NCBI RefSeq assembly: GCF_988243305.1
Contig: NZ_OZ547138.1
Length of the DNA: 64,000 bases
Direction: 5' to 3' (one strand)
Origin: a plasmid
Shown here: positions 34,002 to 61,041 of the stretch, one piece after another
Position numbering within the stretch: position 1 is the first letter of the stretch
How the letters are laid out: every line of letters begins with the position of its first letter
Notes under the pieces: model-generated
What the model was told of the DNA's origin: nothing
The model's input: the letters and a program-made list of their open reading frames with translations, nothing else
The model's database searches: none
Made by a program: the position numbers and the translations under genes

Positions 34002-34475
34002 TTAGCCTTTTTTCCAAATCTGGTATGTATAATTTATATTAGACATAAAAAACTGTTCAAAAACCAAATTGAAATTCTCAGGCATTATAGGGAATTTGAT
34101 ATCACCTTCGACTTCAACGTGAACAGTAGACAAATGAATTATATCTGCTTTTTCAATAAGGCTATTATAGATTTGACCCCCGCCAGAGACATATACATGA
34201 TCTGTAACTTTTGATAGCTCTTTCAAAGCATTTTCTATTGAAGGAAAAACTAGGACGTTTTCATTTGAGCTTGAAATTCCGTTCTTTGACACTACTGCAT
34301 ATTTGCGATTTGGAAGAACACCCATAGAGTCAAATGTTTTTCTTCCGACAAGGAGCCATTGATTATATGTGAGCGCTTTAAAGAGTAGTTGCTCACCTTT
34401 TACTGACCACGGGATATCAGGACCACTACCGATTACGCCATTTTCTGACACTGCAGAAATCAATGATATTTTCAA
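34002..34475 (-). CDS. dfrA17: Trimethoprim-resistant dihydrofolate reductase, dfrA17-type
   Basis: 157 aa from [23 protein letters not shown]; first cassette next to attI1. Confidence 0.85.
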
Positions 34476-34632
34476 TTTAACTCCCTTAATGGCTAACTTT
34501 GTTTTAGGGCGACTGCCCTGCTGCGTAACATCGTTGCTGCTCCATAACATCAAACATCGACCCACGGCGTAACGCGCTTGCTGCTTGGATGCCCGAGGCA
34601 TAGACTGTACAAAAAAACAGTCATAACAAGCC
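34476..34632 (-). other. attI1: attI1 integration site region of the class 1 integron
   Basis: Region between the intI1 start and the first cassette. Confidence 0.6.
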
Positions 34633-53857: not shown

Positions 53858-54962
53858 TGTGATACTCCTCGCTATCTGTTGCTTTCAGGAAGAGGCGAAC
53901 GGAAGTGGCGTCTTTCAGGATGCCGGACGGCAGGTGCCAGCCGGTATCTGATAACACCCAGGGGGTTCCGCCAAAACCGAACTGGCGGAAAGCCTGGTTA
54001 TTGACATCGATGGCAGCACGTGCGGCGGTCAGACACTGTCCATCCTGTGCGGCCGGTGCATCGCCGGTGGGGGCCATACCACTGTCAGCGGAATACAGCT
54101 GATGCCATCCGGTCGCCCGTTTTTGTGAGTCCGGTTCACACAGCAGCGGAGCAGTCCGCTTTGTACTGGACTCCCCGCCAATCACGGAGACCGGATAAAT
54201 CACCACGCTGAATTCCCGGGCCAGTTGCTTAAGCGCGGGTTCCAGCAGACGGCAGTTGATGCATGCGGGGTCAAGGAAGGCGTACAGCGTGCGTTCATGA
54301 CCAGTGGACAGGTTAATGGTGAACATCCCCCGGTCTGCGTTGCGTTTAAGTACTGTGGCCAGATTACGGCGGGCCTCAGCGGCCTGAACGTGTTGTTCTT
54401 CCGTCACTGCCGTCGGGGCGGGGGCAGAAGAAGGTTCCTGCTGTGTGGGAGCCGGGCGGGCCGGGATGCTGTTAACATGATGTTCCGTATGTGGGCGTGG
54501 TGTCTCTGTGTCGGTTACTGGTTCAGCTCTCCATTCCTGAGATGTAGGGTAAGCCAGCGTGGAAGGGGGCTCTGCCTTCATCCAGTGGTAACCTGCAACT
54601 GTCGCCGGCAGAGCAATTCCGGCGATAAAGCCACACATCAGTGTCCGCCAGAAGCCATTTTTCCGGGAGGGATGTTTTCCTTTTCCGGCATATTCGGCAT
54701 CCAGGCAGGCATCAATCGCTGAGAGCATTCTGCCGATGTGATGTCCGGGACGTTCTGCATCAACGGTATCAACAAGCACCGTTTCGGTTATTTCGCGAAA
54801 AGGGGAACTGAAGGACAGGTGCATCAGCCTGTTATTACGGTTAATCAGTGCGCCCAGTTCTGTGACTGGCAGGATGGCAATCACCTCCCGATTACCGTCA
54901 GGGTACAGGGCGATCAGGGACAGGTGTTTATTATTCAGTGTTGCAGTGTAGTGGATGGTCAT
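53838..54962 (-). CDS. trbB: Conjugal transfer protein TrbB (thioredoxin-like, CxxC)
   Basis: 374 aa with CINC motif, Pro/Thr-rich linker and a transmembrane segment. Confidence 0.7.
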   Translation of the reverse strand: MTIHYTATLNNKHLSLIALYPDGNREVIAILPVTELGALINRNNRLMHLSFSSPFREITETVLVDTVDAERPGHHIGRMLSAIDACLDAEYAGKGKHPSRKNGFWRTLMCGFIAGIALPATVAGYHWMKAEPPSTLAYPTSQEWRAEPVTDTETPRPHTEHHVNSIPARPAPTQQEPSSAPAPTAVTEEQHVQAAEARRNLATVLKRNADRGMFTINLSTGHERTLYAFLDPACINCRLLEPALKQLAREFSVVIYPVSVIGGESSTKRTAPLLCEPDSQKRATGWHQLYSADSGMAPTGDAPAAQDGQCLTAARAAIDVNNQAFRQFGFGGTPWVLSDTGWHLPSGILKDATSVRLFLKATDSEEYHNEPAPR

Positions 54963-56293
54963 TGTTCTTTTTCCTTGTCGGCGGGATGCTGTTTTTCGGT
55001 GGTTTCGGTGGTTTCGGTGGTTTCGGTGGTTTCGGTGGTTTCGGTGGTTTCGGTGGTTTCGGTGGTTTCGGTGGTTTCACCAGTGTCAGTGTCTTCGTCG
55101 TTATCATGGCGGCGGGGTATCACGTCATCCGTGAGTGACCAGCGGGTCCTGATCTGACGTTTACGATCGCGATCTGGCTGAGGTTCGTCCCATATCAGGC
55201 CCAGCCCCAGCATGTCCCGTCGAAGCCCTTCAATGGCCTCTTCCACACAGGGTTCCGGGCAGGGGAGGCCGAGACGGCTGGCTTCATTTTCTGCCCGGGC
55301 AACGGCCACCACGCCGGCCCCTTCGATGAAGCCTTTTGTGGTGTTTGCCCGGTGAAGGGCATAGAAGAGCGTCCGGTCAACGCCCTTGAGCCACAGCCAG
55401 TTCGGAGGCGTCAGGCGCAAATCATGTGCGTAAAGCCAGACCAGACCGCTGCGAACGTAACGGTGCTGCCTGAGCCACTGTTGTGCGCCTTCTGTTTTGA
55501 TGACCCGGATAAAGGCGTTTCTGGCCAGTGAATACACCGGCGTGCTGAAACGCCCCTGGTCCCGTTTACTTTTGAGCCTGCAGGAGAGATTGAGGTTGTT
55601 CATCAGGGCTACCGCTGCTTTCCGGTCACCGAGGAAGAACTGCAGGCCAAAGATGGCAAAGAGCGCTTTTTCATGTGGGGCCATGTCTTTCCAGCTGGTC
55701 AGTGGTTGCCCCAGTTGCGCCATGAAGCACTGGCGTGTGGACGCAACATCGAGCTGCATGTTGCGGATAAGGTTGTTCTGCTCCACAAAGACTTCGGGGG
55801 TTAGTGCGACACGGCGCTCGGGACGTTTTTGTCCGTGGAAGAGTCTGTTGTTGTCTCCATCAGCCAGAACGGGGGCGATCGCCGGTGACAGAGCTGAAAA
55901 AATATGGGGCAGTGTGTGGATATTCAGTGGCCTGCGGGTAAAACGGGGCTGGGCCGGATGGTGAAACCACATCCACAGAAAGCCGAATGTCATGGGAAGC
56001 AGAATCAACCAGAGGATCCCCACTGTCCGGGACATAACATCCAGCCACTGGCCGAAAGTGATGGTTGCCGCGTTGTTAGCAGTGATGGCCAGCAGGTTGT
56101 AACGGGGGGCGGCAAAGTTGTGAAAGGGCCCCCAGTCAATCATGCCCCACAGTGTGTGCAGGATCAGGCAGGAGGCGAAGACGATTTCAGGTAAAAAGCG
56201 CCAGATGATAATCGCAAAGAGCAGGCATATGGCACCGACGATATACCATATAGCCATTGGATCTTCGGCGGCAGACGTCTGTTGGTAAGACAC
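54959..56293 (-). CDS. trbA: Conjugal transfer membrane protein TrbA with C-terminal TET tandem repeat
   Basis: 444-aa polytopic membrane protein, first gene of the trb operon; C-terminus GETTETTETTETTETTETTETTETTE. Confidence 0.7.
   Translation of the reverse strand: MSYQQTSAAEDPMAIWYIVGAICLLFAIIIWRFLPEIVFASCLILHTLWGMIDWGPFHNFAAPRYNLLAITANNAATITFGQWLDVMSRTVGILWLILLPMTFGFLWMWFHHPAQPRFTRRPLNIHTLPHIFSALSPAIAPVLADGDNNRLFHGQKRPERRVALTPEVFVEQNNLIRNMQLDVASTRQCFMAQLGQPLTSWKDMAPHEKALFAIFGLQFFLGDRKAAVALMNNLNLSCRLKSKRDQGRFSTPVYSLARNAFIRVIKTEGAQQWLRQHRYVRSGLVWLYAHDLRLTPPNWLWLKGVDRTLFYALHRANTTKGFIEGAGVVAVARAENEASRLGLPCPEPCVEEAIEGLRRDMLGLGLIWDEPQPDRDRKRQIRTRWSLTDDVIPRRHDNDEDTDTGETTETTETTETTETTETTETTETTETTEKQHPADKEKEQ
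54994..55080. repeat. Tandem 9-bp repeat (GGTTTCGGT, about 9.5 copies) within the 3' end of trbA
   Basis: Perfect tandem repeats read directly; encode the (TTE)n tract on the minus strand. Confidence 0.85.
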
Positions 56294-56436
56294 GGGGATT
56301 CCTCCATCGATAAATAGATAAATTTCGGGATGAGGCTGAGTGGAATTAATGCGAACAATCGCCGGTAATGACTGGGCAGGGCTGAATTCAGCAGGGCATT
56401 TTCACAGGAACAGCAGAAGGTGGTGAGAGACAGGCA

Positions 56437-56535
56437 CAAAAAAGCCGACTGGTGAGGCCGGCTTTTTTGCGATCCCAGGGAGAGTGGGTGGCTCTGGCCC
56501 GGAGGAAGTCTCTTTTCAACTAACGTTACCAGAAT
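56437..56535 (-). ncRNA. Candidate antisense antitoxin small RNA 1 (predicted, type I TA unit 1)
   Basis: Minus-strand promoter-like TTGCGA-17-TATTCT near 56560-56590, 34-nt segment complementary to the toxin-1 5' UTR (motif 56491-56524 versus 56727-56758), terminated by a hairpin plus T-run on the minus strand (56437-56467). Confidence 0.35.
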
Positions 56536-56829
56536 ATCGTTATATTCACCTGATCGCAATCTGTTCGTTACAGTCTATTGTTCCGGGAGTAGCGATATCG
56601 CCTGAAACAAGTATAATCAGCAAGTTAGCCTTGTCTGGAGACTTACCTTCGCATCAATCCATCGGGACTATGGATCTGTGCTATTCAAAGACCTGGCCGG
56701 ACAAACAGGTGGTGCTGCGTCTGGTGCTCTGGCCGGAGGAAGTCTCTTTTCAGCTAACAATGAAAGAGCTGTTGTGACAGGCAATGTAAGAGTAAACAAC
56801 AGTGATTTCCTCCATTGATGGAGAAACGG

Positions 56830-56925
56830 ATGATTAACCTGTTAATCATCGTTCTCAGGGCGGTTGTTGCTGTGGCTAACGCAGTGATAGCAATCCTGGA
56901 ACTGATCCGGGAACTGGTTGACTGA
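56830..56925 (+). CDS. Candidate DinQ/TisB-like type I toxin, 31-aa hydrophobic peptide (copy 1)
   Basis: MINLLIIVLRAVVAVANAVIAILELIRELVD; RBS GGAG embedded in the palindrome CTCCATTGATGGAG; strong terminator downstream. Confidence 0.55.
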   Translation: MINLLIIVLRAVVAVANAVIAILELIRELVD

Positions 56926-56946
56926 TAATCCCGGAAACGTACTTAA

Positions 56947-56975
56947 GGGCAGAGGGTCACCGCCCTCTGCCCTTT
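56947..56975 (+). terminator. Rho-independent terminator of toxin unit 1
   Basis: 10-bp stem GGGCAGAGGG-tcaccg-CCCTCTGCCC followed by TTT. Confidence 0.6.
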
Positions 56976-57163
56976 AATAATCTACGGACAGATTACTTTC
57001 TGTACTTCCAGAGCCTGTTTCTGTGAGTCAAACATGAGCTGGTTTTTACCGACTACACCCAAGTAAATATATTCGATATCTCCCATTTGCCGTATTTTCG
57101 TAAAATTCAACAGGAAATATTCAACGGGAGTGAGAGAACTGCTGTCCGGGGAGGAGGTACAGA

Positions 57164-57262
57164 CGCAAAAAAACCGACTGGTGAGGCCGGTTTTTTTGCG
57201 ATTCCGGATCGAAGTTGGTAGCCCTGACCGGAAGATAACTGCCTATAACTGACTATGAAATA
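57164..57262 (-). ncRNA. Candidate antisense antitoxin small RNA 2 (predicted, type I TA unit 2)
   Basis: Minus-strand promoter-like TTGCAG-17-TATTAT near 57285-57315, segment 57221-57252 matching the toxin-2 5' UTR motif (57410-57441), hairpin plus T-run 57166-57197. Confidence 0.35.
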
Positions 57263-57513
57263 ATACGGCTGAAATAATATTTCTGCAAGCACAGTATAAG
57301 TATATACTCGGTGTGTCAGCTTTGAGGCACGTTCTTTCCGGCATATCGTTCACCGGGATGAACAGGTTGCAAGTCCTGGCCAAAACATCAGGTGGTGCTG
57401 GTTTTGGTGCTCTGGCCGGAGAAGAACTGTCTATAACTGACACTATAGAAAACGTGGCGACAGGCAATGTAAGGGCAAACCACGGTGTTCTTTCTCCATT
57501 GATGGAGAAGCGG

Positions 57514-57609
57514 ATGATTAACCTGTTAATCATCGTTCTCAGGGCGGTTGTTGCTGTGGCTAACGCAGTGATAGCAATCCTGGAACTGATCCGGGAACTG
57601 GTTGACTGA
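57514..57609 (+). CDS. Candidate DinQ/TisB-like type I toxin, 31-aa peptide (copy 2, identical coding sequence)
   Basis: Coding sequence identical to 56830-56925, same RBS palindrome and terminator. Confidence 0.55.
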   Translation: MINLLIIVLRAVVAVANAVIAILELIRELVD

Positions 57610-57630
57610 TAATCCCGGAAACGTACTTAA

Positions 57631-57659
57631 GGGCAGAGGGTCACCGCCTTCTGCCCTTT
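57631..57659 (+). terminator. Rho-independent terminator of toxin unit 2
   Basis: GGGCAGAGGG-tcaccg-CCTTCTGCCC followed by TTT. Confidence 0.6.
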
Positions 57660-57997
57660 AACAAAATATGCTCAGGTTAAAAATCGAAAACCTTCCTGCA
57701 CTTCCTGTGCCTGTTCCCGTGAGTCAAACATGAGCCGGCTTTTACCCGGAACTCCCCAGGAAATATATTCTACATCCACCCACCATTTTCCGTATTCTTC
57801 ATACGGTCCGGATATCACTTTAGTGACAAATGCATCAACCAGGTTCATTTTTACACCTTTCTGTTATTCTGCTTATTACGACCAGCAGACAGCAAATATT
57901 AAAAATAACGCGGCGGTAAAAATGGCAATTTTTTCCATGCTGTATTTTTGCCATTTATTTTCTTTGAAATGGTTTTTTTCTTCATATCAGCAAATAA

Positions 57998-58465
57998 TTA
58001 TTTCTTATTCTGTTTTCTCCAGGTCCATGGTGGTACCGGATTTTTATCTGCCCATAATCCCCGCTTCAGGGCGCGGGCATCACGCTGGAGCGGCGGGAGA
58101 GTATAGTCATTATTGTAGTCCGGGTACACCCAGGCAGCGCCGTTACGGACCTGCCAGCGATTTGCTTCTGTGCCGTCAGCGGTATAGACCCGGCCGAGAA
58201 TACGGCCATACCTGTCTGTCTGCGCGTATTGCACGGTTACGGGCTTTCCGGCCACCAGGTCCTTCAGCTGAGTGGCTGACCAGCGTCCAAAGGGCTGTTT
58301 CTTTTCCGGTGCATCAATATTAGCCAGACGGACCCTGACAGGCTTTTTGTCCTGTAATATTTCCAGCGTATCACCATCAAGAACGCGGATGACGTGCCCC
58401 TGAATCTGTGCGGCACAGAGAGAGGCGGAAAAAATAATGGTGAGTGAAAATATATATTTTATCAT
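57998..58465 (-). CDS. nuc: Secreted thermonuclease-like endonuclease (SNase family, plasmid nuc-type)
   Basis: 155 aa with signal peptide and SNase-like motifs (VIRVLDGDTLEI, RLANIDAPE, DRYGRILGRV). Confidence 0.8.
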   Translation of the reverse strand: MIKYIFSLTIIFSASLCAAQIQGHVIRVLDGDTLEILQDKKPVRVRLANIDAPEKKQPFGRWSATQLKDLVAGKPVTVQYAQTDRYGRILGRVYTADGTEANRWQVRNGAAWVYPDYNNDYTLPPLQRDARALKRGLWADKNPVPPWTWRKQNKK

Positions 58466-60566: not shown

Positions 60567-60747
60567 GATGTGTCCTTGTTTTTTATTATTTTGCATTTCA
60601 GAAAATAACACGATGCCTGCAGCCCGGAAAACAGATGTGTGCACACGTAGTCACTTTCCGGCTTTATTTCTGTCCCTGACACAAAATACGTGGTGGCATG
60701 AAAAGGATTGTGGCGGACAGGAAAACGATTAGAATAGCGGCGGGCGC

Positions 60748-61041
60748 TTGAGGCTGTATGCCGAAAGCGTTTTGTGGACGGCATGTAGCAGAAAGCCCCA
60801 GGCGATTTTTTTATCAATCAACCCAGGGCCCACTGTAATGCCTAGACAACATTATAGTAGCCCGATGACGGCCGAAAGGCAATGGAGGGGCTGCGATGCC
60901 ACAACGAACGTTTTTAATGATGTTAATCGTCGTCTGTGTGACGATACTGTGTTTTGTCTGGATGGTGAGGGATTCGCTTTGCGGATTTCGTATCGAGCAG
61001 GGAAATACGGTGTTTGTGGCAACGTTAGCCTACGAAGTTAA
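60748..61041 (+). CDS. pndC: Candidate PndC (mok-like frame overlapping pndA; true start uncertain)
   Basis: ORF overlapping pndA in another frame, as in hok/mok-type loci. Confidence 0.35.
   Translation: MRLYAESVLWTACSRKPQAIFLSINPGPTVMPRQHYSSPMTAERQWRGCDATTNVFNDVNRRLCDDTVFCLDGEGFALRISYRAGKYGVCGNVSLRS

Follow-up and report, generated by a model that had tools for sequence, protein, structure and literature searches.

Kristiansen et al. 2016 (PMC5066626) defined the dql (dinQ-like) family, with its subfamilies dqlA and dqlB, on Enterobacteriaceae chromosomes and plasmids. Two of its plasmid-borne representatives have since been studied: DqlB-agrB of the IncL plasmid pOXA-48 was shown in 2025 to work as an addiction module whose toxicity is relieved by agrB (PMC12365149), and the locus on pOXA-484 (IncX3) was independently validated as toxic, agrB-rescued and plasmid-stabilising (PMC12317039). 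dqlB is found on 83.2% of IncB/O/K/Z and 67.4% of IncI1 plasmids (PMC12365149). As far as the dql-family literature could be searched, it deals with single modules and mentions no tandem copies, specificity classes or orphan agrB genes. The closest precedent for tandem type I toxin–antitoxin (TA) pairs that diverged in specificity is the zor/orz locus of E. coli O157:H7, where OrzP cannot repress zorO and the discrimination is made by a few variable nucleotides, a 3-nt region, at the 5′ end of the small RNA (sRNA) (PMC3919570); orphan orz antitoxins are also known (PMC11264685). Here, we analyze a 64,000-nt stretch of a plasmid (NCBI RefSeq assembly GCF_988243305.1, contig NZ_OZ547138.1), hereafter the window, to which all coordinates refer. 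This I-complex (IncI1/B/O-typed) conjugative plasmid very likely carries two complete DqlB/AgrB type I TA modules in tandem, with each sRNA predicted to act on its own message only.

A first reading of the window, made from its letters alone (the sequence-only reading), had proposed two tandem units of the same architecture between trbA and the thermonuclease gene nuc, and our inspection of positions 55800–58300 for sequence, open reading frames (ORFs) and repeats recovered all the elements that it listed, each in its place. The units lie head to tail, flanked by trbA (54959–56293, minus strand) and the thermonuclease gene (57998–58465, minus strand), and both run through a hairpin, a motif A, a motif B, a palindrome over the Shine–Dalgarno (SD) sequence, a 31-codon ORF and a GC-rich terminator stem. 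Their features are as follows (MFE, minimum free energy; PGAP, the NCBI Prokaryotic Genome Annotation Pipeline):

56436..56523, minus strand: agrB-like sRNA gene 1, class alpha, 88 nt (full-length match to Rfam RF02891 AgrB)
56531..56559, minus strand: predicted promoter of agrB-like 1, -35 TTGCGA, 17-nt spacer, -10 TATTCT (sequence and position of the K-12 agrB promoter)
56613..56618, plus strand: predicted -10 box TATAAT of dqlB-1, with a putative start near 56625 (sequence and alignment to the K-12 dinQ 5′ end)
56726..56758, plus strand: dqlB-1 leader target site B1, with complementarity to the agrB-like 1 5′ end (duplex of -59.8 kcal/mol)
56810..56823, plus strand: SD-sequestering hairpin CUCCA-UUGA-UGGAG of dqlB-1 (predicted fold; homologous to the K-12 dinQ SD stem-loop, PMC5066626)
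56830..56925, plus strand: dqlB-1, ORF of the 31-aa toxin MINLLIIVLRAVVAVANAVIAILELIRELVD (NCBIfam NF041473; PGAP dqlB at homologous positions)
56945..56975, plus strand: dqlB-1 terminator hairpin (inverted repeat I4; 13-bp stem in the MFE fold)
57165..57252, minus strand: agrB-like sRNA gene 2, class beta, 88 nt (Rfam AgrB above the gathering score)
57260..57288, minus strand: predicted promoter of agrB-like 2, -35 TTGCAG, 17-nt spacer, -10 TATTAT (sequence and positional homology to K-12 agrB)
57303..57308, plus strand: predicted -10 box TATACT of dqlB-2, with a putative start near 57316 (alignment to the K-12 dinQ promoter)
57409..57441, plus strand: target site B2 in the dqlB-2 leader (duplex of -51.2 kcal/mol with agrB-like 2)
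57494..57507, plus strand: SD-sequestering hairpin of dqlB-2 (predicted fold)
57514..57609, plus strand: dqlB-2, ORF of the 31-aa toxin, nucleotide-identical to dqlB-1 (NCBIfam NF041473)
57629..57659, plus strand: dqlB-2 terminator hairpin (inverted repeat search and MFE fold)

The first hairpins of the two units (56436–56470, the terminator hairpin of agrB-like 1, and 57165–57199), with A and T runs at their flanks, are 87% identical over 52 nt. Motif A1 (56491–56524) matches motif B1 with 94% identity over 34 nt (E = 9e-8, blastn against the 64-kb window), and motif A2 (57221–57253) matches motif B2 with 82% identity over 33 nt; four of the six A2/B2 differences become G:U pairs in the RNA duplex, leaving two real mismatches. 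Motifs A and B are spaced by about 190–235 bp in both units, the palindrome CTCCATTGATGGAG covers the GGAG SD sequence in each, and the two ORFs encode the same 31 amino acids with 0 of 96 nucleotides differing. The terminator stems, at about 56945–56975 and 57629–57659, have a short U-tract like that of K-12 dinQ, because of which a generic terminator scan missed both; the same scan flagged the sRNA hairpins on the plus strand only. Both sRNA promoters likewise escaped a generic scan because only 8 of 12 consensus positions match. Positional homology to the mapped K-12 locus was therefore our guide to these elements. A third copy of the module was sought since a plasmid search had given two places per record, and none was found in the 64-kb window by blastn and tblastn.

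The toxin is identified by a full-length match of the 31-aa ORF (residues 1–31 on profile positions 1–31) to NCBIfam NF041473, “DinQ-like type I toxin DqlB”, with 66.2 bits against a cutoff of 35. Its score against the DinQ model (NF041472) is 19.1 bits, below the cutoff of 30, and these two models were the only ones returned by the NCBIfam scan at E ≤ 1, the TisB family being absent. Thus, where the sequence-only reading had likened the peptide to both DinQ and TisB, the kinship to DinQ stands in the form of DqlB and that to TisB falls away. Assignment to DinQ proper was rejected on the sub-cutoff score together with the lack of a LexA box at the promoters (see below), and membership of TisB/IstR on the lack of similarity to TisB in the same scan. 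The ZorO/OrzO-P system was likewise set aside, as the Rfam OrzO-P model gave 28.7–30.8 bits against a gathering score of 60 and covered the terminator hairpins alone. The 5′ untranslated region (UTR), in turn, shares its leader blocks with K-12 dinQ and ten other dql loci. On every criterion that can be put to sequence, the locus is a member of the DqlB/AgrB family; toxicity, cognate rescue and plasmid stabilisation would be expected of it by analogy with the published pOXA-48 and pOXA-484 homologues.

This family is not new, and the sequence-only reading, which had correctly read a known system, erred in supposing that the locus had not been described on I-complex plasmids: the dql family definition (PMC5066626), the plasmid survey cited above (PMC12365149) and the PGAP annotation of dqlB all show otherwise. 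In NZ_MN335640 and NZ_CP060062, dqlB is the PGAP annotation at the homologous position, and RefSeq names the gene at this locus in related IncK2/Z plasmids, twice in NZ_CP060062. The coverage is uneven, with the (incomplete) PLSDB gene table of NZ_MN335640.1 listing one of the two dqlB copies and LR213460.1, a window-identical record, having nothing annotated at the locus. The latter, a Shigella sonnei plasmid typed as IncI1/B/O, MOBP and MPF_I, is 100% identical to the window over the query. An agrB sRNA gene is listed in none of the feature tables retrieved.

Of the two antitoxin genes, agrB-like 2 (57252..57165) matches the Rfam AgrB model (RF02891) over its full length with 47.7 bits (gathering score 40) and was also recovered by a gathering-threshold scan of the whole window. 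agrB-like 1 (56523..56436) matches the full model length with 37.4 bits (E = 5e-4), and its near-identical copy in another tandem plasmid (L003) scores 41.0 bits. The Rfam matches, 88 nt each, fall exactly on the motif A regions from which the sequence-only reading had predicted minus-strand RNAs, and its proposal of a DinQ-like toxin with a divergent trans-acting antisense RNA in the agrB/dinQ geometry is borne out by the joint matches of the DqlB and AgrB models. Both sRNAs are predicted to fold like K-12 AgrB (z = -2.45 for agrB-like 1 and -4.64 for agrB-like 2): the 5′ tail, about 20 nt long, is mostly unpaired, and next come an internal stem-loop and the terminator hairpin. The promoters that it had read on the minus strand before motif A, TTGCGA-17-TATTCT (56559..56531) and TTGCAG-17-TATTAT (57288..57260), end 7 nt before the 5′ end of the AgrB match and are placed as the K-12 agrB promoter, TTGCAA-17-TAGTAT, in a comparison with K-12 dinQ-agrAB; the K-12 agrB start site was mapped by primer extension (PMC3567139). 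The agrB-like 1 promoter is identical in L003 and in the IncK2/Z plasmid NZ_CP135650 (L015), and has two differences in L005, neither of them in a hexamer.

Each sRNA gene has the expected divergent orientation beside a toxin gene, and about 30 nt of its 5′ end are complementary to the toxin 5′ UTR: 33 of 34 positions for alpha, and 27 Watson–Crick plus 4 G:U pairs over 33 positions for beta. Repression would rest on a duplex and on cleavage of the processed toxin mRNA by RNase III, as in K-12 agrB/dinQ (PMC5066626). The Rfam model itself misses more divergent plasmid agrB genes, with no AgrB match at E ≤ 1 in a pOXA-48-like plasmid (L012, NZ_CP030135.1) or an IncN plasmid (L013, NZ_CP010382.1). 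Since the agrB of pOXA-48 is experimentally validated, a missing Rfam match is no evidence of absence.

As agrB-like 1 lies on the trbA strand, 143 nt upstream of the trbA start codon, the region might be read as serving the neighbouring transfer genes (trbA) as an untranslated leader or a regulatory region, an outcome that the sequence-only reading had named as its own refutation. However, both RNAs terminate in strong hairpins, the elements match dedicated toxin and antitoxin models, and the module occurs independently of this context on IncX, IncHI2, IncL/M and IncN plasmids. We consider the leader explanation refuted, any residual chance of it being negligible.

The specificity of the two antitoxins was assessed from duplex energies between the first 36 nt of each sRNA and short target windows, with a longer version using an 86-nt target window; folding whole sRNAs against whole leaders was dropped, as it gave inflated, unrealistic duplexes that ignore intramolecular structure. 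The cognate pairs reach -59.8 kcal/mol (agrB-like 1 with the dqlB-1 leader) and -51.2 kcal/mol (agrB-like 2 with the dqlB-2 leader), as compared to -33.9 kcal/mol for agrB-like 1 with the dqlB-2 leader and -34.5 kcal/mol for agrB-like 2 with the dqlB-1 leader (-38 in the 86-nt window). The K-12 locus offers a benchmark for these values: agrB with dinQ gives -58.2 kcal/mol (-60 in the longer version), and agrA with dinQ gives -42.7 (-44). Both cross pairs are weaker than agrA:dinQ, and AgrA, which is complementary to dinQ at 25 of 31 positions, does not compensate for the loss of agrB even at 9.5-fold up-regulation (PMC3567139). Moreover, in a scan of both strands of the 64-kb window in 60-nt windows, the top site of each sRNA besides its own gene is its cognate leader, about 7–9 standard deviations below the background mean (-18 to -20 kcal/mol, standard deviation 4.7). 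The non-cognate leader takes about the tenth place, amid chance sites. The energies thus split cognate from non-cognate pairs, and the unit-specific co-variation of the motifs claimed by the sequence-only reading (A1 with B1, A2 with B2) holds computationally. The units differ mainly in the 5′ tail of the sRNA, its first 20 or so nucleotides.

The two units do share a core of 13–15 nt, GCUCUGGCCGGAG, that is complementary in all four sRNA/leader combinations, and 15 continuous or 17 discontinuous base pairs suffice for repression in the zor/orz system (PMC3919570). This raises the alternative of a dosage duplication with redundant antitoxins that cross-react via the core, rather than two orthogonal specificities. 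We regard it as quite improbable: the core lies within stem-loop 1 of the sRNA and it is the 5′ tail in which the units differ; K-12 agrA has the same core and more, yet cannot replace agrB (PMC3567139); and the cross duplexes are as strong as the best random sites in 64 kb. The orthogonality of the two modules is well supported by these computed duplexes, from which an absence of cross-talk would be predicted.

Together, these features suggest the following mode of action. From the plus strand, each module would express a dqlB mRNA of about 350 nt with its SD sequence locked in a hairpin and the 5′ segment of its leader paired with an internal leader segment, motif B. The divergent minus-strand promoter would yield an 88-nt AgrB-like sRNA, whose 5′ tail would pair with motif B of its own mRNA and keep the message untranslated; by analogy with agrB/dinQ, the bound mRNA would be marked for RNase III cleavage. 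Upon plasmid loss the sRNA would decay, and the stable dqlB mRNA would be processed and translated into a 31-aa helical peptide predicted to insert in the inner membrane and kill or arrest the cell (post-segregational killing). Both modules would produce the same peptide under two antisense specificity classes, alpha and beta.

Predicted folds of the full-length mRNAs, from presumed starts near 56625 and 57316, agree with the locked state: motif B is paired to the 5′ segment in each unit, and the SD sequence is fully sequestered. This corresponds to the translationally inert +1 form of the dinQ mRNA (PMC5066626). In unit 1, the unpaired probability of the SD sequence rises from about 0 at full length to 0.4–0.9 once at least 40 nt are removed from the 5′ end. 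In unit 2, it stays at about 0 in all predicted forms, and 5′ truncation did not open the SD sequence. As the opening is reproduced for unit 1 only, activation by 5′ processing is a step that we infer. On inspection of the sequence, the 5′ element and the element close to the anti-SD change between the units in step with motif B, with GGAGGAAGUC accompanying GACUUACCUUC and GAUUUCCUCC in unit 1 and GGAGAAGAAC accompanying GUUCUUUCC and GUUCUUUCUCC in unit 2, as the alternative-pairing model (PMC5066626) would lead one to expect.

Neither dqlB promoter has a CTG-N10-CAG motif (LexA box); the position of the K-12 LexA box, aligned to unit 2, reads as a degenerate CAG...CTC. A single CTG-N10-CAG occurs per unit, at the homologous positions 56691–56710 and 57374–57393 inside the transcribed leaders, and it agrees with the consensus at 9 of 20 positions (the K-12 dinQ box agrees at 15 of 20). 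A homologous site has been scored as a LexA box for dqlB on pTF2 (PMC12211044). Here, control by LexA (SOS) was rejected, the sole motifs being weak and within the leaders. They are more likely RNA elements than LexA operators, as they overlap the conserved CAGGUGGUGCUG block. In the absence of a LexA box at the promoters, dqlB expression is probably constitutive and outside SOS control, unlike that of dinQ.

The same observation bears on whether the modules, though genuine type I TA pairs, have a main role other than addiction, such as abortive infection against phage, competition with plasmids in the same cell, or a control of growth tied to stress or SOS. On the chromosome, dinQ is under SOS regulation and acts as a modulator of recombination and nucleoid compaction (PMC3567139), and the orphan alpha and beta agrB-like genes of other I-complex plasmids (see below) would fit a plasmid–plasmid interaction. 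Against this stand the missing LexA boxes and the curing and stability assays in which close homologues behave as addiction modules (PMC12365149, PMC12317039), so that we give a primarily non-addictive role little chance.

As to origin, the identity between the two units varies by segment: 66% in the sRNA gene, 30% in the inter-promoter region, 73% in the leader, 99% in the ORF plus terminator (56807–56960 vs 57491–57644) and 51% in the downstream 180 nt. The sequence-only reading had missed that the identity of the ORFs is such a local 99% island. The leaders, moreover, have separate relatives, with that of unit 1 being 96% and 89% identical to the single modules of two IncFIB/IncI-gamma/K1-typed plasmids (L005 and L006) and that of unit 2 being 93% identical to an IncI1 module (L004). 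From both sets of identities it follows that the units represent two old alleles, alpha and beta. A recent duplication with divergence in the antisense region only was rejected, as the segment identities do not fit it. The pattern suggests that the coding and terminator segment was homogenised, most simply via gene conversion between the old alleles, and the identical ORF is better explained in this way than by duplication with selection on the ORF alone. In the tandem plasmid L003 the two dqlB ORFs differ slightly from each other.

To place the two classes in the family, we compared fourteen loci from IncK2/Z, IncI1, IncI-gamma/K1, IncX1/3/4, IncHI2, IncL/M and IncN plasmids and a plasmid-borne dinQ, using Rfam and a duplex-energy matrix. 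Cognate pairs range from -41 to -64 kcal/mol, most at or below -51, and nearly every non-cognate pair falls short of -45 in strength. Across plasmids, same-class pairs behave as cognate, and the matrix resolves at least six specificity classes. Some sRNA genes of the window's classes occur as orphans. The plasmid L015 keeps agrB-alpha with the beta toxin only, and two IncI-gamma/K1 plasmids, NZ_CP129821.1 (L007, 1119–2237) and NZ_CP122589.1 (L008, 1498–2557), have three agrB-like genes upstream of a single dqlB: one beta-type, one alpha-type and one cognate, all three with promoter-like elements. Against the two leaders of the window, the orphan sRNAs of L007/L008 are predicted to pair at -53 to -57 kcal/mol, as strongly as cognates. 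A weak sok-like Rfam match was also seen between the first two sRNA genes of these plasmids.

We further estimated the distribution of the parts by megablast against PLSDB, counting records with at least 80% query coverage; the figures are estimates from identity bands and evenly spaced listings rather than an exact census. The window-type agrB-beta is found in 256 records (249 at ≥99% identity) and the beta leader in 809, of which 256 are at ≥99% and 553, of the IncI1 type, at 90–95%. agrB-alpha is found in 289 records (230 at ≥99%) and the alpha leader in 193 (95 at ≥99% and 64 at 95–99%). Tandem counts from coverage of the whole region were discarded because single modules match both halves of the query, leading to over-counting. 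They were replaced by a junction-specific query running from the dqlB-1 terminator through agrB-2, the sRNA and leader queries being run separately. By this measure, the intact tandem is conserved in about 116–125 PLSDB plasmids (junction at ≥99% identity). In a second group of about 130 plasmids, of the L015 type, the junction query matches in two pieces with 88% identity. A comparison of L015 (1300–2700) with the window (56229–58053) shows a 420-bp deletion of window positions 56663–57082 at a TCCAT microhomology, which removes the alpha leader, ORF and terminator and retains agrB-alpha with its promoter as an orphan antitoxin. The roughly 130 carriers belong to the same lineage, many being from Shigella sonnei. 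The loss of toxin 1 with antitoxin 1 kept is the order of decay expected for a functional TA pair.

Several points weigh against two working modules of separate specificity. About half of the lineage lacks dqlB-1, which shows that dqlB-1 is dispensable. agrB-like 1 is just under the Rfam gathering score (37.4 vs 40 bits). The beta pair of this plasmid, with two mismatches and four G:U pairs, has a duplex energy of -51 kcal/mol vs -62 for the IncI1 beta pair, such that antitoxin 2 may be drifting. The SD opening on 5′ truncation is predicted in unit 1 and not in unit 2, the shared core GCUCUGGCCGGAG may allow some cross-talk, and the toxicity and stability evidence comes from homologues outside both this plasmid and the IncB/O/K/Z group. 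The first three points would also favor an explanation in which only one module is active and the other is a decaying relic like K-12 agrA, with no functional meaning to the tandem. Nevertheless, promoters, target sites, SD hairpins, ORFs and terminators are intact in both units, both cognate duplexes are far above background strength, the ORFs were kept identical, and the tandem junction is conserved at ≥99% in the plasmids counted above. We accordingly judge the relic explanation unlikely and retain that of two complete modules, both of which would be functional.

The orphan genes invite a broader conjecture, which is possible but doubtful. With orphan alpha and beta types on IncI-gamma/K1 plasmids and orphan alpha on about 130 IncB/O/K/Z plasmids, the dqlB/agrB modules of the I-complex might comprise discrete, mutually orthogonal classes in what is perhaps an addiction/anti-addiction network between plasmids. 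If so, two classes would keep killing effective when a co-resident plasmid supplies one antitoxin class (e.g., an IncI1 plasmid supplying class beta), and the promoter-bearing orphan agrB genes could have been selected for neutralising the addiction modules of rivals.

Beyond the terminators, the repeat unit runs on into a further gene, which the sequence-only reading had also missed:

56982..57110, minus strand: truncated 42-codon copy of the 58-aa ORF, marking the end of repeat unit 1 (tblastn; direct repeat D3)
57672..57848, minus strand: convergent 58-aa ORF, function unknown (PHROG 8110, E = 2e-18)

The 42-codon copy is 64% identical to the 58-aa ORF over residues 25–52 (tblastn), the direct repeat D3 being 80% identical, and its presence downstream of dqlB-1 indicates that the ancestral repeat unit included the 58-aa gene. 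The same ORF is a hypothetical protein beside dqlB in L004, L007, L008 and L015 (IncI1, IncI-gamma and IncK). On IncI1 and IncK plasmids it accompanies the beta module, and it is probably not part of the TA mechanism.

Elsewhere in the window, a third type I TA module lies about 3 kb from the dqlB pair, as a pnd-type sok/hok region recognized by Rfam (60742–60898, plus strand, 125.6 bits). An Rfam match to AAC_AAD_leader/attI site (34462–34543, minus strand, 68.8 bits) points to a class 1 integron on the plasmid. A perfect 9-bp tandem repeat, TTTCGGTGG, of 9.4 copies (54994–55078) lies at the 3′ end of trbA and encodes a (TET)n tract near the C-terminus of TrbA; given the differing trbA lengths in related plasmids, the region may vary in length.

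DqlB/AgrB, which often goes unannotated, has recently been validated as a determinant of resistance-plasmid stability, and in E. coli and Shigella, IncB/O/K/Z plasmids can have two copies predicted not to cross-react, along with hok/sok 3 kb away. Curing strategies that supply antitoxin RNA would need both RNAs, and annotation pipelines should call both copies. What appears new here is computational and incremental: an adjacent pair of predicted orthogonal classes whose ORF is homogenised, a large lineage of deletion derivatives that retain an orphan antitoxin, and alpha- and beta-type orphan sRNAs on other I-complex plasmids. With its two classes, shared coding segment and toxin-first deletions, the locus provides natural material on the diversification of antisense specificity.

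It extends known biology and does not constitute a new kind of system, as the comparison with its closest relatives makes clear. With the single plasmid DqlB/AgrB modules it shares the toxin family (NF041473), its 31-aa peptide being about 70–85% identical to the IncX, IncL and IncN versions, a divergently transcribed agrB-like sRNA whose pairing with the 5′ UTR spans about 33–35 nt, and the leader landmarks CAGGUGGUGCUG, GCUCUGG..GGAG, GUGACAGGC and the SD hairpin; it differs in having two complete tandem modules with differing sRNAs and targets and an identical ORF. Hok/sok (pnd) is alike in its post-segregational killing by a stable, locked toxin mRNA that is activated by processing and held by an unstable antisense RNA. 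However, Sok is cis-encoded and overlaps the mok/hok leader, whereas AgrB is a separate, trans-acting RNA of limited complementarity, and the toxins are unrelated. In zorO-orzO/zorP-orzP (E. coli O157:H7; Wen, Won and Fozo 2014, PMC3919570), a toxin and its divergent trans-acting sRNA are likewise duplicated in tandem, but the locus is chromosomal, belongs to another toxin family and varies in a 3-nt region as compared to most of the first 20 or so sRNA nucleotides here. Finally, K-12 dinQ-agrAB (Weel-Sneve et al. 2013, PMC3567139) has the same gene geometry, sRNA architecture, promoter layout, SD-sequestering hairpin and alternative leader pairings. There, too, two agr genes lie in tandem, and control of the toxin falls to the well-matched agrB only; here, the peptide is of the DqlB subfamily and the promoters are without a LexA box. 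K-12 has two sRNA genes and one toxin gene, whereas the present locus has two of each, with each sRNA matched to its own message.

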